Assembly (NCBI GenBank): GCA_000091205.1
Contig: AP006502.2
DNA length: 64,000 bases
Source of the DNA: Cyanidioschyzon merolae
Lineage: Eukaryota
Reading direction: 5' to 3' (one strand)
How positions within the stretch are numbered: position 1 is the first letter of the stretch; every line of letters starts with the position of its first letter. Below, in pieces: positions 2,851 through 54,780 of this stretch. The notes beneath the pieces were generated by a model. It was not told the origin of the DNA and did no database searches. It was given only the letters and a program-made list of their open reading frames with translations. The position numbers were made by a program, and so were the translations under genes.

Positions 2851-3033
2851 GCCCTAGTTATCCACGTAAACCGTTGCATTTTACCCTGACTGAGGATAAA
2901 CATGCTATGGACGCCCTACTTAGCCACGTAAACCGTTGCACTTTACCCTGACTCAGTATATACATGCTATGGACGCCCTACTTAGTCACGTAAACCGTTG
3001 CATTTCACCCTGACTGAGTATAAACATGTTATG
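2851..3033. repeat. tandem repeat, 62-bp unit x3
   Basis: The unit gccctacttagccacgtaaaccgttgcactttaccctgactcagtatatacatgctatggac is repeated three times with a few substitutions. Confidence 0.9.
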
Positions 3034-3587
3034 AAAGCAGACGATGAGAAGCCGTGATGATGCCTGTCTACCTGACGATTCTCTCGCCTGATGAATCGGG
3101 CCCATGGCGAGACGCAGCGGACTGGATGCATCTGCGCTGTCCATATCAAAGGCAGTAGACTCCTGATCAGCGACGGTACCTAGAGGTACTGGGCAAGCCT
3201 CGGCGGGGACGCAACTTTTCGCGTGATACCCGCTGGCAGTTCGGCGCCATCAGGTTCCAGCGGGCGGCGCTTCGACGCTGCAGGAAGCATCGAATCCATC
3301 ATGGGCACCAGGAAATAACAGAAAACAGCACCAGAATAGAACGAAATGCGATACGGAACGACAGCGCACGAACCGGGAGAGTCACTGTATGCTTTGGCGG
3401 TACGAGTCTTCGTGGGGCTCCTTGCGAAAAGCACGCATTTACCAAGTTCAAGATATAGCGAGCTCCCGCGGTGCAACTGCGACTATACACTGTGCTGGTT
3501 GCCCACGATACGGTACAGCGGCGTATTTCTAGCCGGTGCATAACGCAAATCACGCTCTTCGGCGACAACCGTGAAACCCCGTCGCGC

Positions 3588-5222: not shown

Positions 5223-5924
5223 GATTCTACCGGAGAAACTGCAGCCGCTCAAATGATGCGGCGACGACGTGCAGCGGCAACCTCGCCGGACGAGGCCTAC
5301 AGAATGTCTAGAGGCGTTGGGTGTTATGCTTCAGTAGTGTGAGAGCGGCGACGCTGATGGTGCTCGCGGTGCGCAGTTTCGACAGGGATACGGATGAGAC
5401 AATTATGTATATTATTGCAAAGCACGTTCGGCAGCCGCCTCAACGTCGGATTTCGATCTGGATGCCTCAGGCTATTCGGGTGTGCCGACACCAGCACGCA
5501 CTTCACTAGCGTCTGTTGTGCACAAAAGCTGAATGATGCAGCTCGTCCTCGGCTAAGCGTGCACCTTGATGCTATCTGCACGATCATGGTTCGTACCGGG
5601 TTTGCGCATGCGCAGCACGATGCTTCTCTGCCTCCATCATGCGTTTGCATTGATGTATGTGACTGGGGTGCCAGCTAGATTCCGCTGCACGTTGCGAGCG
5701 TGCATTGATCATTCGCTCTCGAATGGGCGCTTTCCTTCAGGTTTCTTGCAAGTTTGAGGAGCTACCGGATCCAAGATGGATGTTTTTGGCCAAATGGTGT
5801 CATACGAGTGCACAGGAAAATAGAGATTATGAGGAATGAACATGCCGCTCTCGACTCTGGACGCATGAATGGTGCTGCGGTCACAGCGGTGACTCGACCA
5901 AATGGTGCTATGCATCTTTTTTTC

Positions 5925-6132
5925 AGATCATACGCAATACGTCCCTTGCTCTATCATTCTAAACGATTTGTCGATTACACAGCGTATCCCGTTTCCTATT
6001 TGCCAGATCATACGCAATACGTCCCTTGCTCTATCATTCTGAACGTTTTGTCGATTACACAGCGTATCCCGTATCCCATTTGCCGAATCATACGCAATAC
6101 GTCCCTTGCCCTATCATTCTAAACGACTTGTC
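5925..6132. repeat. tandem repeat, 80-bp unit x2.6
   Basis: The unit agatcatacgcaatacgtcccttgctctatcattctaaacgatttgtcgattacacagcgtatcccgtttcctatttgcc is repeated. Confidence 0.9.
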
Positions 6133-6416
6133 TACGAGACATCGCCCAGTTCATCGATGAACAGCAGCGGTCAGCCAAAGGCGCGTGCGTTACGCGACGG
6201 GTGGCGCGAAAGCGCGGGAGCCTGAGCGCTTACCGCCTCTGGGCGCAACGCGCGGCTTGCGCTTCTGGGCTAGCTTGAGCCTGTACGACACGAACGTTCA
6301 GAGCGGGACACACTTGGCAACTATTTCGCTTTTCTGGACTGCTTTATTTATCATCTAGGAGTGAAACTGGAGTCGGTTTTTGCATAGAAAACGGGCACTG
6401 CGGATATTCGCAGTTC

Positions 6417-8261: not shown

Positions 8262-8547
8262 ATGGATTGATGCTGATGCACCGCTGACCTGAAGGAGCAT
8301 GCTGGACCTGGGCGTCCATATGACACCCCTGAAAACTGATACACCGCGCCGTACTGCTTGAAGCGGCATCGAATCAGCTTGAAGTGTTAGAGCGGTGGTC
8401 TTTCGCACGCAAACCTCAACGTTTCTATGCTGATTTCAGACCAGAGTGGATCAGGCCCACGTGGCTAACTCGAGCGTATACGCTAAAGTTGAGGTCTCGT
8501 TCCGCTTTCATCTACAGTGATCCTCACAGGCTCGTTCTGAGATTGCT

Positions 8548-9095
8548 TGGTTCCCTCGATACATCTCTCTCTCTCTCTGTCGGATATCCGGATATCAACA
8601 CGCCGGTCTCGTATATCGTTCCAGCTTCGCTATCAGCAGCAGGATCAGGTTGATGGCAGCGTTAGGGTCGCGATTTCGCCGCTTCTGGCTGTTGTCAATG
8701 TATTTCATGCCCAGGCAAAAGCTAAGATTCACGCATCGCTTGACTTTTTCATCTTTCCCCGAGTCTAGCATCGGTGCGTGCCACGCATTGGGGACTCTTG
8801 CCCGTTGTAAAGTGTTCCCGTATGGCAAAGATCCGTCAGTCTTCGAGAAGCGGCCCCGTGGCACGCGAACGCTTGCTTCATCTCTCGGTGTACGCCCTTG
8901 ACGGAGTACAGAAGGCTCGCCCCAAAGTACTCCTCTGTTTCCGCTTCTGAACGATCCCTTACGGCAAATGCGCTGTCGGCTGCATGCGGAAGCGCACGTT
9001 GTCTCGTTTGATAGGGAAGTTATGGAATGTGATGTTCTCCATGATGGAACAAGTACCGAAAAGAATACGCAGGGTGGAGAACGCGTCGAGCGCAT
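8548..9095 (-). mobile_element. repeat family 1, copy C: decayed TnpB/Fanzor-like 3' gene fragment plus conserved downstream tail
   Basis: The minus-strand ORF ends ...KRCVNLSFCLGMKYIDNSQKRRNRDPNAAINLILLL*. This is a zinc-finger plus RuvC-III-like DRDxNAAxNI motif, with the first Asp replaced by Asn. Nucleotide homology to the other copies starts from the shared boundary motif (tttttctgtgactgc-like). Protein-level homology to copy B holds for 400 bp or more. Confidence 0.45.
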
Positions 9096-9248
9096 TCCAA
9101 ATATCTACGCCCCGCATCGTGCAAAGCGATGGCAGACTCCCCAATAGAAGCGATCACTGCGATGACGCAAATCCGAATGCAAGACCCATTTCCATGCAAA
9201 TAGGAGAGACACGGGAGCCCCCGGGAGCGTATCCCCTGAGAAGTAGCA

Positions 9249-9269
9249 CTGCTGCTGCTGCTGCTGCTG
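9249..9269. repeat. (CTG)7 microsatellite
   Basis: A direct read of ctgctgctgctgctgctgctg. Confidence 0.9.
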
Positions 9270-10140
9270 AATGCCAAATCATCGCTTGAAGGCCCGCATT
9301 TTAGGTTCAGTTGTTGTTTTTTGCGAGCATTCGATTATTTGAATCGACAATTTCCGTTATCTTTCTGCATGCGAATCTCAACCATTCGTCAAGGGAACAA
9401 GTCGAGTACGTTTTACTCGTCGATGCAACAACGCGAACCGTTACGCCCATGGGATGTTTTGAAATAGAAAGATCGAAAACTTGAAGCGTGCGCGATTGGA
9501 GCATCCTGCACGTACGGAAAGTACAAACGCAGCGGCTCGTACGTACGCGTCGTCGGTTAACGATATCGGGTCTTTTGTACACCCTTGTTCGAGAGTATCA
9601 CCAATCATCTTGATTCCCTTGACCTAACGAGTTCCAGCGGGAACGCGTGGAATGAGCCACTCCAGAGCGAGACAGAGGCACCCCAGCATCCTGCGGTTAC
9701 ATGTAGATCCGTATACCCCTATTGCGGCACATCTAAAAAGTTCGAAAAATAATTTCGTGGAATGAACAGAGCAAGTGGTTCAGTGCTCCGCATGAATCTT
9801 ATACGGCTCTAGTGACTCCTTGGTACGACGAAAGGTTCACAGAGTACGGACTAATGAGCAGCGTTGCGCAATGCACGTCGTGGGACTTGCAACAACTGGG
9901 GTCCGGTCTGTCTGGGTAGGGTGCTGCACCTTGGGCTTGAACACGAACTGGGCGCGCTACTGGATGCGCCCCAGCAGCGATCACTGCTGATCTCACTCCG
10001 CTCGCAGGCAGTTACGATACACAGGGCGCATGTTCGCGAGCAACCCATCCGAAAATCCCTCCGACAGTACGTTTAGGTGCGAGTAAGCTCTTTTCGAGCA
10101 ACGCGTTAGCCAATCGCTCTCAATCCACCAAGTGCCTCCA

Positions 10141-11502: not shown

Positions 11503-12000
11503 GGCGCCTTCGAGTCCTTTGACCGTCCTGCTTGCTGCGTTCCGGCTAAACGACTTGCTCTGCGTGATAAACCTTCCGTTTCCAGAAAGATGCACTCGGC
11601 ACAATGTCGGCTTCGTGACCAGCAGAAGCTAGAGCCGCTTTCCACTGCCCCGCAAAGTGCACCTGTTGCTCGGTACGGTCGCTATTACCTGTTTTCACGC
11701 CTGCTCCAGCACACACTCCCAACTAGCTACGTCCAGGTTCAATCTATGTTCACTATTCTCCACAAGAAACAGTGAAGCAGAAAGGTACAATCGTATACCT
11801 GTTCTGCGTACGAAACTTGAAGAACACTTCGACAGGTGTGAATGTCTTCGCAGTGCGTTGCGTTCCCAGCGAGACTTGTGCGTCGCCTGCATTCTGCCGA
11901 GCTCCGCACTTTTGCCGTCGTTCACCTGAATTATGTTCCGCGCTGAAATACTTGTCACGAAATCCTTTTTCGGAGTTTATAGCAAACGCGTTTAAAGTGC

Positions 12001-12366
12001 GTTCATTTGAAGGAATAAAAATCCAGGAAAAGGTATGGATGTGCAGGTCGGGGATCTTCGCGGTCTGTCAATACCAGTTGCCCGAAGAAGATCGAAAAAT
12101 CCACTTCTCGCCGACTATCGGGCGAGGAAGCGCAAGTGAATATGAAGATGGACACGGCAGATAGACGAGGAAAGATGTTTGGCCGACGGGAGGATCACAA
12201 GCCTGCAGCGGTACGAGTGGCTCGAGTTCGGGCAATCCTTGCATTGGTTCGTTCAGTTCGAGGCAACGAACGCGCGGAGTTCCTGAAGCGAGACATCAAC
12301 GCCGTCATTCAACATCAGACTATGTGTGGTGTTGAAGTCGAGACCCGGGGAGCTTTCGATATCTAA
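12001..12366 (+). repeat. repeat family 2, copy 1: conserved ~135-bp leader plus short conserved ORF (MKMDTADRRGKMFGRREDHKPAAVRVARVRAILAL...)
   Basis: About 75% nucleotide identity to 15347-15560 and 63714-63990, for example ttctcgccgactatcgggcgaggaagcgcaagtgaatatgaagatgg. The ORFs align at the protein level with many substitutions and a preserved frame. Confidence 0.45.
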
Positions 12367-13501
12367 CCTAGTGGGGGTGCCTCTCAGACTCGAAATGGTA
12401 TCCGGATAAGAGCTGAAACGGATAGCAGTCGGTCGGCCAAAAATGGCTGGGAAGCGTCTGCGCGTGAGTCTTCATGTACCTTCCATGATCTTGGGTGGTT
12501 TTGTTTCACTCACGATTTGGGCGAATACACGACTGAATCGCCGCAAGGGCTGATGTTTTCGGAACGCTCGCTGCGCTCTTCTTTACGACCAGCAGTATAT
12601 GGGCGCTCTTCGCGCGCCTATACACAAGCCTATCATTTTCCCCGAATGACGTCTCATCGCATGAGACGCATACACTTTCATCCTGTCATACGCTTTCGCG
12701 TTTCATTACAAACTCGACGGCGCTTGTTGCTGAAAGCGTGACGGTCTACCATAGAGGCATGCTTTTTTCTTTGTCCATCCGTGTCTCCTCATTACGATGC
12801 GTTCCAGCGGTTCAGATGCCTCACATCCTACGTCTTCTAAGGGAGCAATTTCTCGACAGCGTACGTATTGGATCGCATGCACAAGGCTACAGTCGTGCAG
12901 GCACAGTTTGTTAGATTCTGTTTTGGACGTGCGACTTTCAGGATAAGAACGACGACGACGACGACGAGAAAGGTTGCTCAACCAGCTGCTGACCAAAAAG
13001 TAACCGACATGGACACGAAAGGTTGTTTTTTTTCGCAACCTCTCCCCGATCTACAAAATGCATTCCTTTTGTTGAATACATGGGAGAAAAACAAAAACAA
13101 ACAACAAAAAAGGCGAGCTGGAGCACATGCTCCAGAATGCACTGCTCCAGCTTGAGCGATCGCTTGCATGGAGCAAGCTTGTCAAGTTCGTTGATGGATC
13201 TTACTTCACCTAGTCTGAAGCGTTTTCGGGGCGAGAATCCTTTGTTAGTCTAAGGGAACAGGTATACCTCTCGGGACGATGCTCGCTTAAGGCGAAGATC
13301 TCTATCACAATGGCAAATATATCCTAGTATCTATTCTTTTGCTGAGCGGCTCTTTACCGCGTTATTACTCAAGCGGGCCGCGTTTGATCACGATTTCACC
13401 GGGAAATCGCGCTCCTCTGCAAGTCCATAACTTGCGCTCCTGTTTGTATAGAAACATCAGCTTTGCGATTGCCTGATATTCTAACCTGAGCCCCATGGCT
13501 T

Positions 13502-15013
13502 CTACAATGTTTCCGAGAGCAGGCCCCCACTACTAAATGCCAGCGTTCGTGAATCCCGCAACGGTGCCTCTTGGGACTCTTGTTTGTGTTCGCTGTTGCT
13601 GGGACAGGTGTGGAAGTACGACTGGCCTGGGCCCAAGCTGATATACTTCGGATGGCGGCTGCGCCCCCAGTGTCGTAGCAGACAAGGTGCGTAATCGAGC
13701 TTGATTTGTACAGTCTCGTGTCGGTAATTACGATACATGGTCCCGTACGGAGGCCAGAATTCACGCGAGACCCCTTGTCGCCGCATCTGGAGATACTCGG
13801 ATACGGTGAGATAGATGCGGCCCGCGTTATGCTCCAGATGCGAGGCGATCTGCTCCAGCAGATACTCTTCTAAGAAAGCAGGGTCTAAGTTCTCATCCAA
13901 ATCTGGGACGTCGATACGGTTGCTCTCATAAAGATCAAAGTATCCCCAGCAACGCGATCTGCTATGCTTTCCATTAGCATGCGGCTGCAGCGGCATTCTC
14001 CCTTGGCATAACGCATGCAGTTTGCTCGCCTGCCCGAGCGCCACGTTGAATCCAGGTACCTGCGTGGACGCCAGAGTTCGTCGTTGTGCGCAGACGCCGT
14101 TGATATATCCCAAAGTCCATTCATCATATGGTGATCCGAACACCGAAGGCTCATAGCCCCAGATTTCTCGAAAAGCAGTCAATGCTTCTTTCAAGCGTTG
14201 GTGAAGACGACGAGCTGCGAGCCTGTGATCTGCACTCCACCAGGTGAACTCGCTATGCAGAGCATGTGAGTCTCGCCCACAGAGCCGATTCTCCACGAGG
14301 CACGCTCGGGCTGCATTCCTGCTCCAGGTTCCATTGTATGACAACGGGGCATGATCGGCGAGACTCTTCAGGAACTGAAAGGTGTACGTTGGCGGGTTGT
14401 GTGTGCTGATTCGCGGCACCACGAAACCATCTATGATTTCTACATCAAGGACTTCTGGTTGCCTGCGAATTTCCTCCAGCCAACGACGTGGATGAAGCAC
14501 ACTTCGGCCTCCAAACTCGGGTCTAAGGTTTCGCTGGTAAAACCAGTTGCGGAGCGCCTCCAACGCCTGCGCGTCGCCAATACTTTGTTCCATATATGTC
14601 GCGCGCCCTCTGGGGCCAGACCGCTCGACACCAGGTCTCCAGACCGGAAAAAAGACAGTGATTACCGGAGGCTCGCGCCCTTCGGAACGCGAACTCGTTT
14701 GCAGCTCCGTAAACGTGCGTGCGAGCGCCCTGTCGATAGTCCTCAGAACAGAGGTTCCGTAAAGTGTTGGGCCCGTCAGCGCCAAAGTCGTAAAGTTCTC
14801 AGGTTGGAGAACATAGTTAAAAGAAGCGTGCCTCGGATGTAAAATAAAACGATCTTGGAGCGCGGCTGCATGCCTTTTCGTCTGGTGCCGATTGAACAAC
14901 GCTAGCACCAAGCACAAAAGAAACACGAAAAAACCGAAGAGTGCGCACACCAAAAACCTGTCACTAGTGAAAGACTTGCTCTGTCGTCTAACATAGGGTC
15001 GAAACTTATGCAT
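13502..15013 (-). CDS. hypothetical type II membrane protein with a luminal domain
   Basis: A 503-aa ATG-initiated ORF. It has a short basic N-terminus followed by a transmembrane segment (FLVCALFGFFVFLLCLVLALF), then a large hydrophilic domain. No confident family assignment. Confidence 0.4.
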   Translation of the reverse strand: MHKFRPYVRRQSKSFTSDRFLVCALFGFFVFLLCLVLALFNRHQTKRHAAALQDRFILHPRHASFNYVLQPENFTTLALTGPTLYGTSVLRTIDRALARTFTELQTSSRSEGREPPVITVFFPVWRPGVERSGPRGRATYMEQSIGDAQALEALRNWFYQRNLRPEFGGRSVLHPRRWLEEIRRQPEVLDVEIIDGFVVPRISTHNPPTYTFQFLKSLADHAPLSYNGTWSRNAARACLVENRLCGRDSHALHSEFTWWSADHRLAARRLHQRLKEALTAFREIWGYEPSVFGSPYDEWTLGYINGVCAQRRTLASTQVPGFNVALGQASKLHALCQGRMPLQPHANGKHSRSRCWGYFDLYESNRIDVPDLDENLDPAFLEEYLLEQIASHLEHNAGRIYLTVSEYLQMRRQGVSREFWPPYGTMYRNYRHETVQIKLDYAPCLLRHWGRSRHPKYISLGPGQSYFHTCPSNSEHKQESQEAPLRDSRTLAFSSGGLLSETL

Positions 15014-15346
15014 ATGCCTCGCAAATATTTCAACAAAAAAGAATACCCTCGCCGCGAAGTCCAGCGTCGGTTGCAGGCAACGTCACCAGTGCTTCGCTGG
15101 TATCGAAGCGTTACTTTGAACGACCCACCGATGCCGGCGGCCGCGTGTCGCTGCTGGCCGTCATCGGCGGTGACGTGGCTTCTTCTGCAGCCACAATTGC
15201 CTCGATCATCTCTGGACGCAGTGCTGTGGAGCGATGACACGAGCCGGGGGCGATCGTACGAACGATACAGGTGTTTAAAATCAAACGTGTTCCAGGATCA
15301 GGTGCGTGTTCTCACATCCTTGTTCGCAGTTCATAGCAGATGCGTT

Positions 15347-15763
15347 CGAAAAGCTTTCATTTGGAGAAATAGAAATCCGAGGGAAAGGTAGCGCATGGAC
15401 GTTGGGGATCTTGGAGGGCTGTCAGTGCCAGATGTCCGGGAAAAAACCGAAAAATCCTATTTTCGCTAAGTATCGAGCGAAGAGTAGCAACTGAATATGA
15501 AGATGAGGAGGCGAGGTGGGCGAGAAAAGGTGTTTGCACGACGGGATGATGACGAAACTGTAGTGATGCAGAGAGCTCGAGTTCGAGGAAGCCTTGCACG
15601 TATGAGTTCAACCAGAGGCAATAAATGCAAGGAGTTCATTAACCGAGGCTTCAGCGCCATCAGCAATATCAGACGAGGTGCGGTGCTAAAGACGAGACCC
15701 AAGGAGCTTACGCGATTCAACGTTGTCGGGCAGCATCTGATGCTCGAAATGATGCCCGGATAA
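15347..15763 (+). repeat. repeat family 2, copy 2 (ORF MKMRRRGGREKVFARRDDDETVVMQRARVRGSLARM...)
   Basis: Homologous leader (gctttcatttggagaaatagaaatccgagggaaagg...) and ORF. It lies 180 bp from family-1 copy E. Confidence 0.45.
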
Positions 15764-15942
15764 AAACTGAACCGGAGAGCAAGCTGTCTGTCAAAAATTG
15801 ATGGGAGGCGTGTGTGCTTGGGTAACAAGTTACCCTCTACGGCCGTAGAACATTTCTCGTGTTCCCGATTATAGATACATAACATACTCATGGTCGCTGA
15901 AGTTCGGTTTCTCATTCTATGTCGTCATCATCAGTCTTTGAG

Positions 15943-16300
15943 GACCTTTTACGCGACTGCCTCCTTTTCCTACCTCTGATATCCGGCTTTGAAGACGGCG
16001 ATCGTTGCGCTCACTGCTGCTCTTTTTTCAGCAGTCTGAGGATGCTCATGGATGCGTCCAAGTAAGGAGTTAGCCGCTCCTAGCTTTCTTATAACGCATT
16101 TCAGGCGCAGACCGCAGCTGGGATATTTGCTTCGCATGCTATTTTCACCTTCATCGTAGACAATTTCGGTTCGCCTTTCGCACCGGTGACACTTGGCTGT
16201 GGTCGGGTCTTCTCGTGCGTCCGCTAAACCGCATTCATGCGCTGCTCTGCGGCTTACGAATGCTTGCTTCATCGCTCGTTATATGCCTGTAACAGGTGGA
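15943..16300 (-). mobile_element. repeat family 1, copy E
   Basis: The minus-strand ORF reads TTAKCHRCERRTEIVYDEGENSMRSKYPSCGLRLKC (CxxC-x17-Cx5C zinc finger). About 75% nucleotide homology to copy A, including tcgcaccggtgacacttggctgtggtcgggtc. It shares the same low-coordinate boundary. Confidence 0.45.
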
Positions 16301-17482
16301 GAAGCGCAAATCCGTGCGGTCTCCAGCCCGACATGAGATTTCAGTGTGGCGTGTGCTCCAAGCGCTGCAGTTCGCGGGGCTGACGTGTGCCTTTCCGATT
16401 CGACCCTGCTTAGATCAGGCCAAAGCCTCGTTGCGATGAATTCAGTATGAGGCACAGCCTACGGAGCGTTGAATGGGATGTACCGGACAAGCTGTTCGCG
16501 CGTTCGGCGCGACTAGAGGCTCCGGTGCATGGGTTCTTCTCCGAACGAGGAAAATTTCCTGTCCAGTGTCGATACCATGGGTCCAGGATGAAATCCGTTT
16601 TGAGCGAATCCCCTGGAAATAAAGCGCTGCCTGCGGCTGTGATTGTCTCATTCTGAAAGATCGTGGAGGCTCCCCAAGAACGCTTCACAATCGCGTTCAA
16701 TCTTTTGCGTGCATCGTTCCGTACGACAGTGCCGCTCGTGTCTATGCGGCACGGCTCCTTGTGCGCAGGCGTCCATTTTATTGAACTGCGACAAGCATGT
16801 ATGGAAACTCTGTTTCAGAGCTTCCCCAGAAGCCCAAGTTCAAACCTTTCTGTAGTCTCGAGTAGCCGTTGAGTCGAGTGCGGACCCAGTATCGTTCTCA
16901 AACATGATAAAATCGTACGGCAAGGTAACCACCGCGAGTGTGATGAAGGGATCGATGCGCTGCTGTGCCTGCAGAATTGAGCAGAACCGACGAAGCGATC
17001 GCAAGACAAACGTGGGGATGTCAGACCTCTTCCTTACCAAATCTTTGCGAGCTCGCGGCACGTGACGGCACCGTCGGCTTATACCCTGTGTATATGAAGA
17101 CCAAGGCAACGTTGCAAGTCGATCGTATTCAGAGCATGCTGTAGCCGCCTCACATCTATTCGGATGTGCGCACTGCGCAGACAATGCTAAATTTTTAGAG
17201 AACAATCCATGACACAATCAGTTCGCGAGTAACCGTCTCTCAAACCCTGTTACGCAAAAGTCCCTCATCTATCAAGAGTCATCGCTTACTGCATGGAGAC
17301 GTTCCCTGCTGGGGGCTGCACACTGATCGGGCGACCGGTGCACCGCGGCACAGCTCGCCATCCGTCGTCGGCGTCCGTTCTGGCTGCAGTCCACGAATAT
17401 CCCGTAACTAAGGAACAGGGTGTTGAACTCATCTGCGTCCAGAAAGGCATTCAAAAGTTCCTGCGGTGCAAGCAGAATCGTC

Positions 17483-18016: not shown

Positions 18017-18317
18017 CCTGAGCGAACAAGCCGTTCCCGCAAACGCACTTTGCAACGATGACGGTGTGGCGCGGCGGGCGCGCCTCCGTAGGGACGGAGG
18101 CCTCGCGTCAAGCGCCGACAACAGCCACCGTTGTATATTGCTTTCCTTCGGCATTGTATCGATACTTCTAACCTGAGAATCGCTGTATGCACAATGGTTA
18201 TAGCAGGCATGTCGGAATGAAATAGAATGGGTCCACTTATTGTTCTCAGGCGTGTACGTGGCAGTTTGCAACCCTGCCACGGTTACCATTGTCATCAATC
18301 CTAGCTTTTGTAGAATG

Positions 18318-18720
18318 TTTCATGGACTGCTTCCACTTCCTTTCTCTTATATCTGGCTTTGAAAATGATTGCTTCTCCTTTCCATCCAGCCCTGTTGTCA
18401 GCAGTCGAAATCTATTGATGTCGGTGTTCAAGTCCCGACTACGCGGCTTTCAGCTGTCGTTCGCACATTTCATGTACAGACGGTTGTTGCGCTCGACGTT
18501 TCGTTCGCCATGTTTACCTTCTTTGGTCGCAGACATGGTGCGCCCTTCGCAGCGGTGACACTTGAATGTGGTCAGGTGTGTTCCCTTATGCCAACCAAAC
18601 CGCCCAGCACCGGAGGCTGCACAGTGGCGCGTGCACGCTTGGCTCACCGTTCAGTAAACGCTCTTGACGTGTACAAAAGAATAAGTTCGAAAGCTCCCTC
18701 CAATTCTAGGTCCGGTTCCG
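18318..18720 (-). mobile_element. repeat family 1, copy A
   Basis: The minus-strand ORF reads HKGTHLTTFKCHRCEGRT...RLYMKC. Conserved blocks are shared with copies B, C, D and E: ccagccctgttgtcagcagtcga and tttcatgtacagacg. Confidence 0.45.
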
Positions 18721-20150
18721 TAGCTTGAGATCACATGCTTCATCTGAGCGATGTCCTCGGCAACTGTTTCGTCCTCTTCACGCGAGAACGTATGCTGTTC
18801 CATTCGATAAAGGATTAGGGGAATAAGATGTTGTTCATGATGAACCGAGCCCCGGACGGCAAATTCGAGCTGGAGAACAAGTCAAGCAATGTCGAGCCTG
18901 CTACGCTCCTTCACTTCAAGGCGATGACGCATGCTCGACCGGATGCGATCGCCTCCATGACTCAATCCGAGTCCAAGAACGTTTTTGCTACGCAGCCATA
19001 CGAGACGGGAGCTCCTCGGTGCATCTCCCGAGAGCGGGGTTTCGTGCAGATCTCGAACGCTGTTATGTCGAGGACTCTACCAACAGCACGCTTTGTCTTC
19101 CGAACGGAGTGAATCGGTTATTGGGCATGACATATTCAGTGAACTCACAGCAGCAACACGTGAACATGTCGGCAGGAGACAACCGTAGGGCCCTAGCCGC
19201 ATCAATCAAGCGGTCCGAATGGCTGCGCCTTCGAGTTGCCGTGAAAAGTAAATGTCGAATGCCAGACCAACGATGATTGAGGCATGCTATGCATAAGAAA
19301 GAAAGAAGCGTAGATCCTTGTAAGCATCAACTGAATAATAATATCGATTATTTTACGAACTCTTGTTCAAGTGCATTGCGAATCAAGTATACTCCGGTGT
19401 CGTAACGAACATCAGCAGCTCAGAGTCGAAAGAGCCACTCCGCAAAAACGACCGAGGGCTCTAGGACCGCATATGAATCCGTAAGCCCTTATGACAACAT
19501 TTCGAATGTCGAGGCTGTATATCGAGAAAAGCTCAGGGACAAACTGGAAAGCAGGAGCATCGCGAGTCGTGCAATGCTCGATTTATAATTGACATGGGTG
19601 CAACATCTGAGGAAGCAACTAATGCTGCTTTTGAAACGCTCAGCGTCTCACACGCTTCACAAGAAACTTCCTCGGAAATCATGATCATTTCGCACGCTCC
19701 ACGGCCTGACTATCCATGCTGCAACGTCGAACGCAGGGCGGCGGGTATCCCGCGGACCCATTGCGCTGACAATACGAAGACCCGCGAACTGCGTCGCAAT
19801 GTCCATTTCGTCGCTTCGGTCCTTAGCAAGTGCTCGAGCACGCAGACAAGCAGTCGCCCGCTCGTTTCCTCTGCACTTGGTTACGGTGGGAGCGATTTAT
19901 TGCGTACAAAAAATTCAGCTTCATTTCTTCGCTGAACGAGGCAGAGAACGTTTGGAAGCACTGAAACGGCTGGAGGAGTGCACATCGCCGTGCTTTTCGC
20001 GGAGTTAGACCACTCGCACGTTGCACGCAATTCGAACTGAAGAAACTCCATGCGCTGCTAACAAGTCTTGCACGCGTCTGATAAATCAGCTAGTCCACCC
20101 TATCTTGCCTAGGTATAGGGATACCGCTCGCATTTCTGGTACATTCGATC

Positions 20151-21749
20151 ATGCTTCTGGCGGAAAGCCTCGGCGGCGTCGCTTTTGTCACCGTTCACAC
20201 GGTGCTGTGCGTCGCTGTACTGTACTTACCGTGGAACCGCGGCGACCGAGAAAGCTTCCGTGTCACTTGTCTAGGGGCTTTGAGCACTTGCGCTGTTATC
20301 GCTCTGAGCCTGGTGAATCTTCAGTTGTTCTTCACTGGCTTGACCTGGCGGGAGCTGTCGCGGACGTATCACTGGCTGAGGCCGTGGCACAGCTGGCAAG
20401 TCTATCTACTGGACTCTGGCGGTTTTTTGGTGCTCCTTTTTCTGCACGAGTACAGAAAAAGACAGCAGACTCCAGTTAAGAGTTCGTCATCGAGCACGTG
20501 TGCATCGACGTCGCAGTCCGCTTGCCCGAATGCGGAGAACGGCATCTATCGAAACGAGAGGCGAAATACCTGGTGCATGTTCCGAAGCCTGCTGATCGCA
20601 CCGATAACAGAGGAGCTCCTCTTCCGTTGTGTATTCGATGCAGCAATGAGATCAGCTCAAGTCCCTGAACTTGCCAGCATGATTTTCAACGGAGTCATGT
20701 TTGCCGTAGCGCACGCGCATCACTATTTCCGGCACCAGAGCAGGTCACTTCTCGGAAAGCAGCTTCTTGTAACGTTTTGCTTTGGTTGCGTCCAAGTCGT
20801 TTGCCTGAGACGGACGGATTACTCCCTGTGGGCCTGCATCGCAACGCACGCTTTGGCGAACGCGCTCGATCTGCAGAAAGTTTTCAGTGATAGGGGAGCG
20901 TCACATTTTCTCTACGGCGACGTAGGCCATCAGTTAGGAGCCCTGCTGCAAGCTGCAGCACCGCTCGTATTCATCTTGCGCTATGCGCTTGACATGGCCA
21001 TGCAAGCGAGTCCGTTCCGGTCCTCGATCCTCCAGGTGCATGCGGACCCGGGGCTGCTCGAGGAACGGCGTGAAATCATGCGTCCAACGACGCCGTTTTC
21101 GCTCTTCTTGATAGAATATCATCAGCGTGATCCGATCTTCGGGCGCTTCATGGCTCTCTGCTCCATGCTGCCTCAACTTTTATTCGCCGCAGAGGTCACA
21201 GCTGTCTACTGTTGGCGAAGTCCGCGCGCATTGCTCCTAGCTGTTGGCCAGATTGTGAACGAGACGCTGAGCTACGCACTCAAGCGATCGTGTCGGATAC
21301 CTCGCCCGCCAATCGCTCGACTGGAAGCAGATGCGTTCGGTTGGCCCTCTTCACACGCTCAGTTCATGTCCTACTTGTACGTTTTCTACGTACTCTATGT
21401 GTCTAGGCCACAGCGCAAGGCATCATCGAGCCACAACGGTGAAATGATGCACCAGACGCTTCCGAAGCGGAGGAAGACGACCGATTCAATTTCGGAAACC
21501 GTGGCAGTGATGTTTTTGCTAGGTCTGTCATCCGTTCTGGTGGCTGCCTCAAGAGTATACCTGGCATATCATTATCCCAGTCAGGTTTGGTATGGAATCA
21601 TCATGGGCACTATTTTCGCGATAACCTGGTTCCTTGCGAGTGAAAACGTTTTCTTATCCTACGTTCGATCATTGCGGATTCTCGTATGGCTCGGGTTCGG
21701 CGAAGATGACTCTGACCTGTTTCGCAGTATACTCAGAGATGTGCATTAG
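20151..21749 (+). CDS. in-frame fusion ORF: CAAX prenyl protease 2 (RCE1, CPBP family) N-terminal half plus dolichyl-diphosphatase (DOLPP1/CWH8, PAP2 family) C-terminal half
   Basis: The N-terminal half carries the RCE1 catalytic motifs EExxxR (ITEELLFR), FxxxH (FAVAH) and HxxxN (HALAN) at the correct spacing. The C-terminal half carries DOLPP1-specific PAP2 motifs: KRSCRIPRP (KxxxxxxRP), PSSHAQFM (PSGH) and SRVYLAYHYPSQV (SRxxxxxHxxxQ). The ATG is at 20151 and there is no stop between the two halves. Confidence 0.7.
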   Translation: MLLAESLGGVAFVTVHTVLCVAVLYLPWNRGDRESFRVTCLGALSTCAVIALSLVNLQLFFTGLTWRELSRTYHWLRPWHSWQVYLLDSGGFLVLLFLHEYRKRQQTPVKSSSSSTCASTSQSACPNAENGIYRNERRNTWCMFRSLLIAPITEELLFRCVFDAAMRSAQVPELASMIFNGVMFAVAHAHHYFRHQSRSLLGKQLLVTFCFGCVQVVCLRRTDYSLWACIATHALANALDLQKVFSDRGASHFLYGDVGHQLGALLQAAAPLVFILRYALDMAMQASPFRSSILQVHADPGLLEERREIMRPTTPFSLFLIEYHQRDPIFGRFMALCSMLPQLLFAAEVTAVYCWRSPRALLLAVGQIVNETLSYALKRSCRIPRPPIARLEADAFGWPSSHAQFMSYLYVFYVLYVSRPQRKASSSHNGEMMHQTLPKRRKTTDSISETVAVMFLLGLSSVLVAASRVYLAYHYPSQVWYGIIMGTIFAITWFLASENVFLSYVRSLRILVWLGFGEDDSDLFRSILRDVH

Positions 21750-23442: not shown

Positions 23443-24248
23443 GTTCTCGATTATAGCTTATCGAGGAAGAGACGGAAGCAAGAAGGCACGCCTGTCACGT
23501 TGTGCCGCTGTGGGTGCCTCGCAAAGCACCATTTATTCCTGGACATATTAGGCCAAGACAGTCCGATGCTGTCACCTGGCAAGTGTGCGTTTGGCTTCGC
23601 AGCGCCGGAGGCTCGGCACTGCAATGCAGTGCTTGCCACGGGCACGACAATCCAGAAAATCGTCTGATTCCGGAGCGCATGTGGGTGCATGAAGGAGCAT
23701 AGTTGATGCCCCGGAGGAAGGATGAGGCGTGCCTAGGTAACCGGTTGAATACCTTTCGCATAGGATACGGTGTTGCTGCAGAGTTCGCTCGATCATGTCT
23801 TTAGAACACACTCTAGAGCCCTGATGATGCATGCGGGTTGTATCGCTTTTTTCGTCGGATCCTATCCCGGATGCAGCCTGATGGTACACACGTGACGGGC
23901 TTCGAGCCGCGAGGGTGCATACCTGATGCATCAAGTGTGGGAATTCGCGGCATGAACAAGCATATCCGAAGCTGTTCATCATGCATGTCGCGTCAGCTGG
24001 GAACACGGTATAGATGCCTGCACGAGAAGCGGGCGCGTTTTCGGGCAATATTCGAACGTGTTCTCGGGGCGGAGCCTGCACTTCCATGAGGAATGCTGTG
24101 GCAGCCACGCAGTGAATGATTCACGAAACGATTCGCCGTCATATGCCTAGTCCCCAGCGGGTATACTGCGTTTAATTAACGTGGGGCGCTTGTCGCTTTC
24201 TGTGTCCTAAAAGCACAAAAAGCCTTGCTGATCAGGGTTATACTCGGT

Positions 24249-26829
24249 GCAGAGAATTCTGGAGTGCCTGTATCAGCACGCTGTTTTCGATTTATTTCGG
24301 GTTTCTCGCATACAGTCAACAAAGGAATGCATCCTGTACATTACAGAGAAGACACGGAAAGACTGGTGCTGTCAATGCTAGGATGCGTTCCATGGCCCTA
24401 CGACTACAAGTTCGCCGTTCTGCGCTCAGCGCGTGCATGAACCACACTCGTCGTTGCCCCTGAGCTGAACGTCCTGCACCCAAACCAGATCCCAGAGAAC
24501 GCCCACTAAACGACCGTCTCTCTGTCGATTCACGCCACGACATGCAGTCTCGAACAGGCCGCTATCACAGATGCCAAAGAATGCGACGTTTCCGTTCCGC
24601 AGATGCGAACGGCCACGAACACACGCAGACGGACAACCGAAAACGGCATGCTTATGAGCGGAACTGTCGCACGTCCAGCTGCACACACTTGATTCCGCAC
24701 GGAGACGCGTGTGAGCGCTTCCCATGGGCGACAAGCGCTCATCATCTCGGTCGCAGAGACCTCATTCCCGAGAATACCTGCATCACAATATGGGTACGCC
24801 AAGCAGGGCGTACCGCTGTTCGTAACGAAGGGACGCACGGGAAGACCGGCAGCACCAGCCCGAGTGGCAGTGCGGCCGTGTGGAGGCCTGCACTCGCGAA
24901 ACGCACAGCATCGTGCACTACGTCATCCCGTGTCTGAGCTGTCTCGTCGCGCGTTCATCTCCATACACTGGGTTGTCCTGATCGCGGACGACGCTGCTTT
25001 CCATCACTCAAACCCGGTCAAGGAGCGCGCACCTGAGGCAGGCGTTGAGCGGCTCCCTCCACTGGCTCGTGCTTCTGGGTTCATTCAAGTCGAGGCGTCT
25101 GCGCTGTTGTCAAGTGCCGTTTTCGCAGGCACGCGTCCGTGCACGAGCCGCTCGCAACCGTGAAACGCGTCTTGCACAATTCGTCTCTTGGTCTGTGTCA
25201 GCGATGAACTGGAGTGTTGCCCCTGTGCTCGTGGGCATGCGGCAGCGCGCCGGCGTGCTTCGGTCCTTGAGCGTGCCCGCGACGAACAGGATGACGAAAA
25301 GGTAACTAGATATACATATGTACGTGGGGCAGGGGATGTTTAGTGGCACTGTTTGCACACCGCACCGAGTCCAGGAGAGAAACCGGATGGAAAGCATCGG
25401 AAACACTGTTTGGCACACAGCGACGTGAGGGAGATTCAGAAGGATACCACCAGGCAAAGAAGAGGGAGATTCTCCGGGAAAGAGCGCAACAATGGGCATG
25501 AATGAAAAGCTGTCGGGGCGGAAAGATCAAACGTACGCCGTCCTTGAGGCGTCTCCGCCGAAACACATCAATGGGGAGAATGCTCCAGGACGTGAAATGC
25601 AGGATGCTATTAGGGATCGCACAGCGTCTTACTCGACACGTCGTGTCCAGCACCTCGCGCCTCGGTGCATACCGCCGAAGCATTGTTTTACGAGTTCTGG
25701 AAGAAGGTCTGGCAGCTGTCCACATTCCTCTGGATTATTTCGATCCAACTATCGTGCAGCAAGAGAACGGATGCTCGCGACAGACGATTCTCGATGGCCC
25801 AGTCATATGGTTCGAGATTCGCACAAACGCCTCGAATCGTACCTCGACATGCGCCAGCACAACGTCTTCGCTCGAAAAATGTTCTGCAGTGCATGTGCCA
25901 AATGGTATCAAATGCCTAACTGCAGACCGAAAAGCCTATGTTGGTGAACCTCGAGAGCTTCATGGAGCGCACCGTGTGGGCGTTGTATCCTCATCTTCGT
26001 GGGCCCGCAAAGAAGAGCTGATGGAGGGGATTCTCTGCTCCAGCTTGTACATGAGTGCCACTAGGTGTCACGGGGGCGATCCCTGGCATGGGCACGTGGT
26101 GTCGCGCTGGGGCCGCCACCCGTATCGCAGTGCGGAGGCAAGAGGCGTGTATTCGGGCACACGTTCAATGCGTCAGAAGAAGGAGATGATTGAGAGGTCG
26201 CGTCGCTTGCCCGTAGCCTATGGCGCTGCTCGTTCCGGGCAGCGTAAAACCTGCACTCGTACAGCCTTCGCGCCGAATGTGCAACGACTGCAGGAATCGA
26301 TGCTGCACAACTCCCATAGATGCATCCCCGACGACATACGCGCCTCACGAGCACGAGTGCACCCTGCAACAGGCCCAGAAGCAGTATGTGGAATGGAGTC
26401 GCATGCACGAGATGGCCTACGACCAGCTCAGCAAACATCAGATGCCGAGGCAATCGCCAGTGAGACGCTCGGTATGGTAGGATTCCACAGGCCGCAGTAC
26501 GCCCGAGCGAACAGTATCTGCGCGGAGACTTCAGCCCATCGATGACCTGCAGGTACCGTCTTGCACTTGCAGAGCGTCCGGCTTCCTTGCGTCGAGCGAG
26601 TTCTCGATGTCTACGCTCAGCACGCATCAGTCTGGGCGCTTCGCGAAAACGCTGCAGACCTGCGACGGAAGATAGAAACCCCATTGCCCAGGAGAGCGGG
26701 CATTGGATTCAAGCTTGAAGCGAGCCACAGGTATGGTATGGTACCGCGATCCAGCAAGATTACAGCGCTCAATATCTGCACCGAAAAACCTTTCCCAGGG
26801 CACCTGCTAGACGATATTTGGGTTTTGTT
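24249..26829 (+). repeat. 2581-bp direct repeat, copy 1 (upstream of SERCA)
   Basis: Near-identical (about 99.5%) to 30385-32965 at a constant offset of 6136 bp. Only a handful of single-base differences are visible as amino-acid changes in the duplicated ORFs. Confidence 0.95.
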
Positions 26830-27164: not shown

Positions 27165-27280
27165 CCCCGGTCAACGAAGCGCTTGTCGTGGCCCGCGACG
27201 CATACCGAATCCAGGCGGTGCTCGGTAGCTTGTCGAGACGTTCAGCAACGTCTCTCTGGACCAAAAGTCGTGTGTGTTCC

Positions 27281-30200
27281 ATGGAAGACGCGTTCTGCAG
27301 GACTGCTGAAGAGGTTCTCGAAGCATTTCAAGTACGCAAGGACTATGGCCTCACTGAGGAACAGGTGGCGCTGTACGCCCAGCGGTACGGTAGGAACGTA
27401 ACAGCTCGTGAGGAGAGCGCACCGCTGTGGCAGCTTGTCGTGAAACAGTTTCAGGATCAGTTAGTTTTAATACTTTTGGGTGCTGCTGGAATTTCTTTTA
27501 TTCTAGCTTTATTTGAGGACGATGAGGATCGGGTAACAGCGTTTTTTGAGCCTCTGGTTATCGTCTTGATTCTCGCTGCGAACGCTACTGTCGGTGTGAT
27601 TCAGGAGACCAACGCAGAGAAGGCGATAGAAGCCTTACGGGAGTATGAACCGGACGACGCTACCGTCTTGCGCTGCGGAGAACTTCGGCGGGTGCGGTCA
27701 GAAGAGCTTGTTCCCGGTGATATTATCGAGGTTTCTGTGGGTATGCGCGTTCCAGCGGACTGTCGCATCATCGAACTTGCCTCCACGGTACTCTACGCGG
27801 ACCAATCCGTCCTCACCGGGGAGAGCATCAGCGTGAGCAAGTCTCCAGAGGCTATAACGGACACGCAGTGCATGATTCAGGACAAGACCTGCCTGCTATT
27901 CGCAGGTTGTACGATTGTGCGCGGCAAGGCCCGGTGCGTTGTTACTCAAGTCGGTGAACGAACGGAAATCGGGAAAGTGCGCCGCAATATCGCAGAAACA
28001 AAAGCGGTGATGACGCCTCTCAAGCGCCGCTTGGATGAGTTCGGCTCACTCCTCAGCAAAATCATTCTGTTGATCTGCGTTCTGGTGTGGCTGATCAATA
28101 TTCGAAACTTTTGGAACCCCGAGCACGGGGGGTTCCTTCGAGGTGCAGTCTATTATTTCAAGATAGCTGTTGCTTTGGCTGTAGCAGCGATACCAGAAGG
28201 TCTGCCTGCTGTTGTAACGACATGCTTGGCACTCGGTACAAAACGAATGGCCCGCAAGAATGCGATCGTGCGCTCGCTGCCGAGCGTGGAAACGCTGGGA
28301 TGCACCAGTGTTATCTGCTCGGACAAGACAGGAACCATCACGACGAATCGCATGTGTGTGACGCGTGTCTTGCTGGTGAGCGATGTGCTCCCCGCCGGCG
28401 ATGGAAAGCTTCTGGACCTCGAAGTGACGGGCCACGGAGACTTCTCACCGTTTGGAAATGTTGTCTACAACGGTTCAGTCTTGGAGAGTCCCCTGAAGAG
28501 CCTGCCCCCGTTGGCGGAGCTGAGCATCGCGGCAACCTTCTGTAACGATGCTTCAATCACCTTCAACATGAAAGGAAGACAGTACGACAAAATCGGGGAA
28601 GGGACTGAGGCAGCCCTGATCACGCTGGTGGAGAAGCTTCGCACGCCCGATGAACACTACAATGCGGAAATATCTCACATGCCTCTCGTGCAACGTGCAA
28701 CGGCAACCAGAGCCTACTGGAACCGGCTCTTCGAGCGCGTTGCAACACTAGAATTCACCCGCGATCGCAAATCAATGAGTGTCTTTTGTCGTCGTTTATC
28801 TGACGAGTCGCTCCATATGTTCGTGAAGGGCGCTCCCGAACGCATTCTGGAGAACAGCGATTATGTATGCATTGGCAACGGTATGCGTATTCCGATCACG
28901 CCGGTGCTTCGTCGTCAGCTTCTGGATGCGGTCGCGAGTCTCAGCAGCGGTGTCCATGCGCTGCGAACGCTCGCGATTGCAACTAGAGATCATCCACCAG
29001 CATTGGAAACCGTAGATATGCGCGACACCCAAAGCTTTGCGCGATACGAATCCAACCTGACGTTCATTGGGCTGGTCGGGATGATTGACCCACCGCGGGA
29101 GGAGGTGCGTGCTGCCATCGAGACCTGTGCGCTTGCCGGAATCCGCGTGATTGTTATCACCGGAGACAACAAAGCAACCGCTGAGGCTATCTGTCGACAG
29201 GTGGGTATATTTGATGACTACGAAGATCTCTCAGGGAAAAGTTACACTGGTCGAGAGTTTGAATTGCTTCCCGAGGATGCACGTCGCCAGGTCGTCCGAA
29301 GAGCGCGTCTTTTTGCGCGCGTCGAGCCGCTCTGCAAACAACGCATCGTGACGCTTCTGCAAGAGCGAGGTGAAGTAGTCGCCGTCACCGGCGACGGTGT
29401 GAACGACGCTCCGGCCCTGAAAGCTGCAGATATCGGCATCTCCATGGGTACCGGGACTGCCGTTGCAAAGGGTGCCGCGGACATGGTACTCGGCGATGAT
29501 AACTTCGCCACGATCGTTGCTGCGGTAGAAGAGGGTCGCGCGATCTACGAAAACATGCGACAGTTCATTCGATATCTCATCTCGTCGAACATCGGGGAGG
29601 TTTGGTGCGTTTTCCTTACCGCTGTGCTGCATACACCCGAAGCGCTGGCACCGGTGCAGTTACTCTGGGTCAATCTGGTGACTGACGGTTTACCAGCTAC
29701 CGCGCTTTCCTTTAATCGACCGGCCAAGAACATCATGCAGCAACCACCGCGACCCAGCAATGAGCACATCGTGAATGGGTGGCTTCTCTTCCGCTATCTC
29801 GTCATCGGTACTTACGTAGGTGTTGCGACAATCGCTGGGCTCATCTGGTGGTACATGTTCTATGCAGGCGGACCTCAACTCTCCTGGTCTGAACTGCGCC
29901 TGCATCGACAGTGCCAGTCTGGAAACGACTTGGGTACAGGTCTCGCTATCAGCTGCGACATTTTCCGAAGCAGGCACCCGAGCACTGTCTCCTTATCCAT
30001 ACTCGTGACCATCGAGATGCTGAATGCACTGAATTCTCTCGCTGAAAACGAGAGTATTACCATCGTCGGACCATGGACGAACCCGTTCCTCGTACTCGCG
30101 ATATGCCTGAGTTTGGCGCTTCACGCGATCATTCTTTATGTGCCGTTCTTCAATCGTGTATTTGCAACAGCCCCGCTCGATTTTCAAGAATGGGTAGCAG

Positions 30201-30298: not shown

Positions 30299-30384
30299 AA
30301 GGCTCTGGAAGAGAATGCAATCCGGGAACACCAGCCGCTACAGCAGCGACAACACTCTGCCTCGGAACCTAGACAAGCCCTGGA

Positions 30385-54080: not shown

Positions 54081-54488
54081 CAACACTGGCCTTCAACGCC
54101 CGGCGTGAAAGTGCTCTATACACAAAGCAACCCCGTTGCCGCTTGCGATCCGGCTAAGAGCTCGTCAAAGTCTTCCTCGGGCACTAAAGTCGGTATCCTG
54201 CGTGCAGATCGCCCAGTTGCACTCACTCCAAAAGTTTTCACGCAATCGTACGGAGCTCGAGTCCTTCCAGTAAAGATACCAAGCAAGCAACCGTCTAGAA
54301 GACTAGGGCGCAATCCGTTTGTGTAAGCGCGGCGGCTGCGGCGACGACGATTGCAGCAACTGCAGCGCTTGCAAAGCCGCCGCAGCGGTACACCCATGTC
54401 AGAATGAAATGGAAGGGGCCGACTGGCTCAAGCAAACAAATTCGAGTTATGGTCTCTTCCCGATGTTATGAACATCAGCCTTCGCGGG

Positions 54489-54780
54489 CTTTTTCTGTGA
54501 CTGCTTCATATTCCTCTCCCTTATCCGTGGCTTTACATACACTGCTCTCGTCCTTCCTTCCCGCTCCGTTGTCAGCTGGAGAAGGATGTTGATGGCAGCG
54601 ATCAAGTCGCGATTTTGCTGGTTCAAGCTGATGTCAACGCATTTCATGCAAATCCGAAAGTCGCAATCAAACCTTCCTTTGCCATTTCTAGCTTCCTTGA
54701 TCGGAGCCTCTTTGCGCCATGAGCAGCAAGGACGCTTCATCGTGGTCGCGTGTTCCAACGAATCCACCACTTCGCCTCCC
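54489..54780 (-). mobile_element. repeat family 1, copy D
   Basis: The minus-strand ORF reads ...RPCCSWRKEAPIKEARNGKGRFDCDFRICMKCVDISLNQQNRDLIAAINILLQL, the clearest zinc-finger plus NRD-x-IAAINIL motif. The 5' boundary (gggctttttctgtgactgcttc) matches copy B. Confidence 0.5.

Follow-up and report, generated by a model that had tools for sequence, protein, structure and literature searches.

We analysed 64,000 nucleotides of Cyanidioschyzon merolae 10D chromosome 20 (GCA_000091205.1, contig AP006502.2), here called the window, in which the locus tags CMT233C, CMT236C, CMT247C, and CMT641C are present and nine of 10 long open reading frames tested match annotated C. merolae 10D proteins exactly, and whose genes, as recognized by Pfam, are ordinary eukaryotic housekeeping genes, intronless and lying on both strands. 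In the spacer between CMT236C and an LLPH-like gene, two pieces of repeated DNA lie tail to tail, one belonging to a repeat family that we call family 2 and the other to family 1 (Table 1). They are very probably dead relics of two different Fanzor1-type (TnpB-like) transposons that came to be neighbours by chance. Fanzor1 proteins are eukaryotic homologues of TnpB and have elsewhere been shown to be RNA-guided DNA endonucleases.

An earlier note on this DNA had placed the family-2 copy at 15347-15763 and the family-1 copy at 15943-16300, with 180 bp between them. Both are genuine dispersed repeats and not chance matches. The first extends over about 15270-15862 when it is aligned with the CMe-1A transposon consensus and nine further copies. 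For the second, the right edge near 16300 holds, but there is no boundary at 15943, and similarity runs on to 15895, which is position 1341 of the element and 53 nt short of its 3' end; the gap is actually only about 32 bp. The note was correct that the two open reading frames (ORFs), an MKM ORF in the family-2 copy and a zinc-finger ORF in the family-1 piece, converge. Repeated DNA between 14900 and 20300 is confined to ~15250-16340 and 18300-19620, and in the window as a whole self-BLASTN (62-72% identity) and profile searches recover six family-1 and four family-2 copies. Profile searches find dozens more in related metagenome contigs.

Table 1. Features of the repeat region, its neighbouring genes, and the other copies of both families in the window. 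HMM (hmm), hidden Markov model; E, expectation value.
Feature	Position	Strand	Details
Family-2 copy	15270-15862	+	CMe-1A ~788-1071 joined to ~2840-3088, plus ~50-nt 3' tail; ends from 10-copy alignment
Relic of CMe-1 Fanzor start codon	15395-15397	+	MDVGDLGG... versus MEKEVEDPGG in CMe-1; stop 24 codons on
MKM ORF, 88 amino acids	15497-15763	+	Starts at internal Met of lysine-rich linker; RuvC-III motif decayed to NRGFSAISNI
Approximate deletion junction	15566-15570	+	CMe-1 residue ~55 (..ETVV) joined in frame to ~643 (QRARVRG..); 10-copy blastx
Hairpin GGGTAAC-AA-GTTACCC	15820-15835	+	3' tail of family-2 copy
Spacer, ~32 bp	15863-15894		Assignable to neither family; between end of family-2 conservation and first family-1 HMM/consensus base
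Family-1 fragment	15895-16304	-	Element 1341 to 924; nhmmer (HMM of 47 other copies) hmm 923-1340, E 8e-71
Zinc-finger relic ORF, 100 amino acids	15970-16272	-	Fanzor zinc-finger and RuvC-III region; TTAKCHRCE kept
Full-length family-1 element	1519-2893	+	nhmmer hmm 7-1389
Full-length family-1 element	8433-9806	-	nhmmer hmm 10-1388
Full-length family-1 element, 1.4 kb	18208-19603	-	nhmmer hmm 4-1389, E 3e-303; 72% to consensus
Full-length family-1 element	54392-55772	-	nhmmer hmm 4-1392; 3' inverted-repeat match 54397-54415, 2 mismatches (0.02 expected by chance)
Full-length family-1 element	61538-62899	-	nhmmer hmm 10-1390; 3' inverted-repeat match 61541-61559, 3 mismatches
Family-2 copy	11918-12510	+	Same deletion structure
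Family-2 copy	56640-57238	-	Same deletion structure
Family-2 copy	63631-64000	+	Cut by window end
CMT236C	13502-15013	-	Left-hand neighbour of region studied; start codon ~260 bp from family-2 copy
LLPH-like host gene	17483-~18082	-	Likely start Met at ~18016
Rce1/PAP2 gene	20151-21749	+	Right-hand neighbour of region studied

Family 2 and the CMe-1A transposon

The one Fanzor1 family reported from C. merolae is the transposon CMe-1A, which has a 3169-bp consensus, ~150 copies each ~80% identical to that consensus, no terminal inverted repeats, a target-site duplication that could not be determined, and a 734-amino-acid protein, CMe-1 (Bao and Jurka 2013, Mob DNA 4:12; PMC3627910). We took the CMe-1A consensus and the CMe-1 protein from the supplement of that paper and compared them with the window by blastn and tblastn. 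All four family-2 copies match, and each aligns to CMe-1A ~822-969 and then to ~2849-3092. In the copy beside CMT236C, blastn places CMe-1A 840-969 at 15320-15454 and 2849-3010 at 15580-15738 with 70-71% identity, a local alignment extends to consensus position 3083 at 15814, and residues 640-726 of CMe-1 are matched by tblastn (E 2e-13).

A consensus of 10 family-2 copies is closer to the parent (79% identity over CMe-1A 788-969 and 78% over 2840-3088) and regains one open frame, in which blastx finds CMe-1 residues 1-55 (E 3e-6) fused in frame to residues 640-729 (69% identity, E 8e-38). The 3' high-scoring segment starts at CMe-1A position 2849-2851 in six of the 10 copies and within 2831-2889 in three others, so the junction is common to the copies. 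By these alignments, family 2 is an internal deletion derivative of CMe-1A, ~0.6 kb long; the pattern of matches and the shared junction indicate that a loss of ~1.75 kb, which removed almost all of the nuclease, came first and that the unit was then copied many times, with at least 10 independent copies of the deleted form. What remains is codons 1-55, preceded by ~120 nt of upstream sequence, and the final ~90 codons, which contain the RuvC-III motif and are followed by a short 3' tail. The "leader" that the earlier note saw in the copy is present, and its identity is the CMe-1A upstream sequence together with the first 55 codons.

The family-2 consensus ORF terminates in ...RGNERKEFLNRDFNAVSNIRRCVVLKTRPEEL, the third RuvC motif of TnpB/Fanzor nucleases. 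This motif reads NRDFNAAINI in both the family-2 consensus and CMe-1, and NRD has become NRG in the copy at 15270-15862. Family 2 does not encode the full CMe-1 protein, only residues 1-55 and 640-729, and in the window copy even that frame is broken; the MKM ORF is a chance-open remnant of the fused Fanzor frame. The 3' tail carries a hairpin, and in the 10-copy alignment, inspected by eye, other copies have a differently sequenced hairpin at the matching place.

Like CMe-1A, family 2 is without terminal inverted repeats (CMe-1A consensus ends reach no more than the background score of 6, and none are evident in the family-2 alignment), and it is of similar age, given the ~80% identity to consensus in the published description. 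Unlike CMe-1A, it lacks consensus positions 1-787, including a 635-bp TE-N2_CMe-like part, as well as ~1072-2839, nearly the whole Fanzor gene, and it forms a multi-copy subfamily in its own right that is not mentioned in PMC3627910. It also resembles MITE-like (miniature inverted-repeat transposable element-like) non-autonomous derivatives of DNA transposons, and the relics of bacterial TnpB-only IS200/IS605 elements, in being short and multi-copy and in keeping terminal and near-terminal parts of its parent; it differs from them in starting at position 788, without the published 5' end of the parent, and in having no inverted repeats. The parent is known, and its multi-copy ~0.6-kb derivative marks out sequences that were sufficient for copying, among them the 3' region, which is the guide RNA site in characterised Fanzors.

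The published account equates the 5' part of CMe-1A with a separate element, TE-N2_CMe (PMC3627910). A fragment elsewhere in the window, at 38805-39259 on the minus strand, matches CMe-1A consensus 85-282 and 503-536 and stands alone, without a Fanzor gene.

Family 1, an inverted-repeat family with Fanzor1 motifs

A scan of metagenome contigs for family-1 homologues yielded 80 loci in 51 non-redundant groups, mostly from hot-spring samples in which contigs 99% identical to the window also occur. Alignment of 47 full copies with 400-bp flanks gives an element of ~1.39 kb in which conservation begins and ends abruptly. Its ends form 23-bp terminal inverted repeats, with CCCGTGTCAGATTAAAATGGAAC at the 5' end and CCCATGTCAGAATAAAATGGAAC as the reverse complement of the 3' end; these agree at 21 of 23 positions, and none of 2000 shuffles scores as high. 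Across all sequence examined, 35 of 36 inverted-repeat-like motifs lie inside family-1 copies or within 40 bp of one. Two window copies have matches at their predicted ends, with 0.02 matches expected by chance.

The coding potential of family 1 is most readily seen in consensus sequences. Three motifs in the consensus of the window copies are VIVEYGTGRGNGGG, TTVKCHRCE, and NRDFNAAINILRLL, and the 47-copy consensus has VIVGYGTGRGNGGG, TTVKCHRCE...CMKC, and NRDLNAAINI. The latter contains the Fanzor signature of Bao and Jurka (2013), [TS]-[TS]-X-X-C followed by a C4 zinc finger (TTVKCHRCE ... RLCMKCV), for which the relatives' counterpart is CYKCHE...CESCHSCE, and an RD (RuvC-III) 5-50 residues past the zinc finger (CMKCVDNSRKQRNRDLNAAINI). 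In the RuvC-I region, where an aspartate is expected 125-275 residues upstream, the C. merolae consensus has GLT in its long open frame, whereas a different frame gives IDEEK. A protein search recovered three family-1 homologues in metagenomes, one of which (P0003) has GLDPG, the first RuvC motif, and homologues in other Cyanidiales-like contigs carry both GLDPG and CxxC...CxxC. The consensus matches the Pfam family Cas12f1-like_TNB with E 1e-5 and 26.0 bits, just below the cut-off of 26.3, and the accepted Fanzor CMe-1 scores only E 0.51 with the same family. When a family-1 profile was compared by hhalign with a profile of eight published Fanzor1 C-termini, one row of which (PUl-1) is a hand translation of DNA from the supplement, the match had a probability of 99.4% and E 5e-21 over 144 columns. 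Pfam searches with single relic ORFs gave nothing usable, the signal coming from consensus sequences only, and PDB sequence searches with pieces of the consensus returned chance matches only. A "DDE-like" motif in one family-1 frame (FIMDNIAFHKS) was rejected, as it aligns with FMYNDERCKK of intact relatives.

On these motif and profile comparisons we classify family 1 as a second Fanzor1-type element of C. merolae, with nearly its whole length derived from a Fanzor1-type gene. It shares the C-terminal architecture of Fanzor1 proteins, namely a C4 zinc finger, the motifs [TS][TS]xxC and RDxNAAxN, and a G-x-G stretch rich in glycine. It differs in that any ORF in it is at most ~417 amino acids compared with 600-970 in published proteins, its N-terminal lobes are unrecognisable, no clean frame yields the RuvC-I aspartate, and all copies examined (six in the window and the L012 relic described below) are pseudogenes. 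Because no single clean Fanzor frame runs through the RuvC-I region, the element that was amplified may already have been non-autonomous. A tblastn search with the longer L012 relic found no N-terminal Fanzor sequence upstream of family-1 copies, and among the sampled loci (the rest of the genome lying outside the search) there is no longer or autonomous partner with family-1 inverted repeats.

In having 23-bp terminal inverted repeats around a Fanzor-type gene, family 1 resembles the Tc1/mariner-, Sola2-, and MuDR-type Fanzor elements of Bao and Jurka (2013), a likeness that concerns the presence of the repeats (CCCGTGTCAG...) and not a sequence comparison with those superfamilies. It differs from them in having no detected transposase and no definable target-site duplication: no transposase gene or remnant was found in family 1, which at 1.39 kb is too short for one, no duplication length of 2-9 bp is enriched at any end offset, and none occurs in the 13 best-ended copies. 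The family is not described in the literature searched, where one Fanzor family is reported for C. merolae (Repbase was outside that search); C. merolae has this ~1.39-kb inverted-repeat Fanzor1-type family, with many old copies, in addition to the one known since 2013.

The fragment next to the family-2 copy aligns by blastn to consensus positions 924-1341 with 71.7% identity, and it is without the first 923 nt of the element and the last 53 nt, which include the 3' inverted repeat. Compared with the consensus TTVKCHRCE...CMKC...NRDLNAAINI, its zinc-finger ORF retains the first CxxC (KCHRC), and the second Cys pair and the RD have decayed (SCGLRLKC; KLGAANSLL). We set its right edge at 16304, from an independent HMM, and not at 16474, a value from an HMM that contained this copy. 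A weak 19-nt match to the family-1 3' end beyond the family-2 copy, at 15276-15294, is better explained as the family-2 5' end, and there is no second family-1 half on the far side of 15270-15862. The earlier note's other family-1 copy in this region, at 18318-18720, exists, but it is only the 3' 400 bp of a full element at 18208-19603.

Two further observations concern family-1 sequences. In more distant eukaryotes, family-1-like Fanzor relics in L012 (7658-9570) and L016 adjoin Skp1 and M16 peptidase genes; they are frameshifted, with GLDPG and CxxC...CxxC intact, and their N-terminal coding sequence is longer than that of the C. merolae element. Within the window, a tandem repeat of 62 bp x 3 at 2846-3038 starts within the 3' inverted repeat of the copy at 1519-2893, and the end of that element has therefore been triplicated.

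The spacers in related algae and the age of the relics

The earlier note's finding that a single small, LLP-like gene occupies 15.0-20.1 kb is borne out: comparison with related algae makes the LLPH-like gene the sole conserved coding sequence between 15013 and 20151. Its Pfam matches are YBL028C_N (E 2.4e-4) and LLPH (E 0.059), and by tblastx it matches the syntenic genes of Cyanidiococcus yangmingshanensis (L009; E 4e-57) and of a second alga (L010; E 3e-50). Both relatives keep the gene order ATPase, IGPS, Rce1/PAP2, LLPH-like, CMT236C, IscS, CMT233C, and UbiA, and similarity to family 1, family 2, or CMe-1 is absent from the syntenic loci of both. The spacer between CMT236C and the LLPH-like gene is 2469 bp in the window, of which 1035 bp are relics and 1434 bp remain, compared with 1652 bp in C. 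yangmingshanensis and 1356 bp in the second alga; that between the LLPH-like gene and Rce1/PAP2 is ~2.1 kb, with 1.4 kb of relics and ~0.7 kb remaining, compared with ~1.2 kb and ~0.8 kb, respectively. In the relatives the genes follow the same order, the elements are missing, and the spacers are shorter; the gene-poor "island" is thus two ordinary spacers inflated by three relics. Fanzor relics account for much of the extra spacer length relative to related algae, and the comparison with the two relatives indicates that the insertions are specific to the C. merolae lineage.

The earlier note had proposed an orthologous locus as a source of empty sites and target-site duplications. The relatives do lack the elements, but they are too diverged to serve that purpose: their CMT236C orthologues are 52% (C. 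yangmingshanensis) and 49% (second alga) identical, so the next relatives provide evidence from gene order and not base-level empty sites or duplications. At the other extreme, eight metagenome contigs encoding an identical CMT236C (the 503-amino-acid neighbour) are 99.2-99.5% identical to the window with the same relic structure; all of them carry the insertions and none offers an empty site at base level. The relics are therefore fixed in the sampled population. An exact-sequence look-up of the 532-amino-acid neighbour protein returned no record.

Both families are long dead, with copies ~72-75% identical to their own consensus. Family-2 copies are 55-67% identical among themselves in a star-like pattern, and each is therefore a separate old insertion; as divergence from the consensus is equal in the two families, the order of insertion is not readable from it. 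With frames broken and catalytic motifs lost, neither piece at 15270-16304 can encode a nuclease, and probably neither does anything today. That the small ORFs or the "leader" have become host genes or regulatory modules under selection, for example as promoter elements of CMT236C, seems highly improbable. The ORFs are open in this copy, the family-2 piece lies upstream of CMT236C with the start codon ~260 bp away, and the structure is fixed in all sampled strains, but in other copies stops and frameshifts interrupt the matching frames, the residues for catalysis and zinc binding have decayed, the copy is as diverged from the consensus as the whole family is, nothing is conserved in the syntenic spacers of the relatives, and neither Pfam nor Rfam gives a match.

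Chance, targeting, and the Fanzor content of the window

The earlier note offered two explanations for the adjacency, either independent insertions at a preferred target or two ends of a composite element, and proposed a census of the distances between the two families. We carried out a partial census over 43 non-redundant family-1-centred loci (688 kb), modelling CMe-1A pieces as random insertion points in non-genic DNA. CMe-1A-derived pieces lie within 30 bp of family 1 in four of 58 cases and within 100 bp in seven of 58 (7-12%), compared with a random expectation of 28-32%; the families are no closer than random placement predicts, the outcome that the note itself had named as telling against a link. 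In simulations of the window, at least one of the four family-2 copies falls within 35 bp of a family-1 copy, or inside one, in 70% of placements. The four window pairs are divergent, convergent, tandem, and divergent in orientation, and at other loci the junctions between the families vary in position and orientation. The note's independent insertions are supported by the star-like divergence of family 2 and by junctions that differ between loci, whereas its preferred target finds no support in the census.

Several observations pull the other way. The census covers ~0.69 Mb of metagenome contigs compared with a 16.5-Mb genome. Of the 10 family-2-type copies seen, five abut family 1: four of the five by the family-2 3' end, convergently, and three of these four face a family-1 copy truncated on that side only. 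A simple nested insertion would leave both halves, and at the truncated contacts no second family-1 half was found past the insert. Within family 1, three breakpoints fall close together at 1135-1154. Target-site duplications were found for neither family, the edges that blast assigns to decayed copies may be off by tens of bases, and the family-1 inverted repeats are a property of the consensus, being mostly too decayed to detect in single window copies, in which a repeat search detected none. The contact and breakpoint hints are post hoc and none is significant, in loci chosen for containing family 1.

These contacts are what would be expected if CMe-1A-type elements were drawn to family-1 sequence, whether by recognising a specific target sequence or by RNA-guided cutting; we regard this explanation as quite unlikely. 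In the RNA-guided form, an element with a family-1 3' flank would make a guide against other family-1 copies, and repair would copy it in, leaving family-1 sequence on one side. When longer CMe-1A pieces are counted, six of nine contacts are through the 3' end, but this corresponds to p ~0.25 in loci selected for family 1, and the positions of contact in family 1 are scattered (832, 1147, 1340, complete end, 213, 413, 1135, 1154). Were such homing to occur, it would explain the mostly 3'-end contacts, the one-sided truncation of family 1, and the breakpoint cluster; that CMe-1A-type Fanzor elements spread in part by RNA-guided homing into another repeat family is nonetheless a long shot, the guide RNA here being putative and CMe-1A pieces not being enriched beside family 1.

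The target of CMe-1A could not be defined in the 2013 paper (PMC3627910). Full 3.2-kb copies of CMe-1A are present in L017, L040, L058, and L085, and the flanks of complete copies in these and other loci are not random, with a run of T at the end of the 5' flank (..TTTTC before CGATGAC) and, usually, a TTTGTTGGTG-like start to the 3' flank. The element may extend past its published consensus, or else its target is T-rich. Such flanks could reflect some target preference, as targeted insertion supposes, but T-richness is not a feature of family-1 sequence.

As to a composite element, in which the two pieces would be the ends of one larger transposon with its interior deleted, the ~32-bp gap is suggestive, as is the position of all four window family-2 copies within ~2.1-2.2 kb of a family-1 copy (5% of simulated placements; P = 0.05). 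We reject it as extremely improbable because these are separate families, each with complete, separately bounded copies (five full family-1 elements in the window and full CMe-1A elsewhere), family 2 maps entirely onto CMe-1A, and family 1 bears inverted repeats of its own. Moreover, the pieces are tail to tail and not colinear, the family-1 piece is without its own 3' end, and orientation, spacing, and breakpoints differ among the four window pairs and at other loci.

Chance adjacency of two dead Fanzor1-type relics fits a compact genome, about half of it coding, in which insertions would survive only in spacers and in older relics and would consequently pile up side by side. Presumably one element inserted next to or within the other, and flanking family-1 sequence was lost. 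The active ancestors may have been RNA-guided nucleases whose guide RNA was encoded at the 3' end, by analogy with characterised Fanzors (PMC11832414). In both consensus sequences, the folding of the 3' 325-345 nt is only slightly better than that of shuffles (z = -2.0 and -2.5), and Rfam gives no match. Understood as chance, the back-to-back arrangement is ordinary transposon debris and needs no special mechanism.

Fanzor-derived DNA makes up ~15 of the 64 kb, approximately one quarter of the window (family 1, ~7.3 kb; family 2, ~2.2 kb; the CMT641C repeats described below, ~5.2 kb; TE-N2, ~0.5 kb). This share is far above what would be expected from the genome's reputation for few mobile elements, and such a load implies that the "simple" C. 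merolae genome contains ancient mobile DNA beyond what repeat masking based on identity would show.

The CMT641C repeats are two 2.6-kb direct repeats (24246-26829 and 30382-32965) that are 99.5% identical and flank a P-type ATPase gene (27188-30298). Each holds a 347-amino-acid ORF (25502-26545 and 31638-32681), annotated as hypothetical protein CMT641C, with no Pfam match. The region resembles several parts of CMe-1, most clearly residues 512-696 (tblastn E 7e-8), and CMT641C looks like a third Fanzor-related gene, recently duplicated.

An intact 176-amino-acid ORF at 55922-56452 on the minus strand sits between a family-1 and a family-2 copy and is Alba/Rpp20-like (Pfam Alba, E 2e-6); its product has an exact match in metagenome sources only, without an NCBI accession, and the gene may be unannotated in the reference genome. 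The spacer that separates CMT233C from the UbiA gene carries a second tandem repeat, of 80 bp x 3, at 5916-6155.

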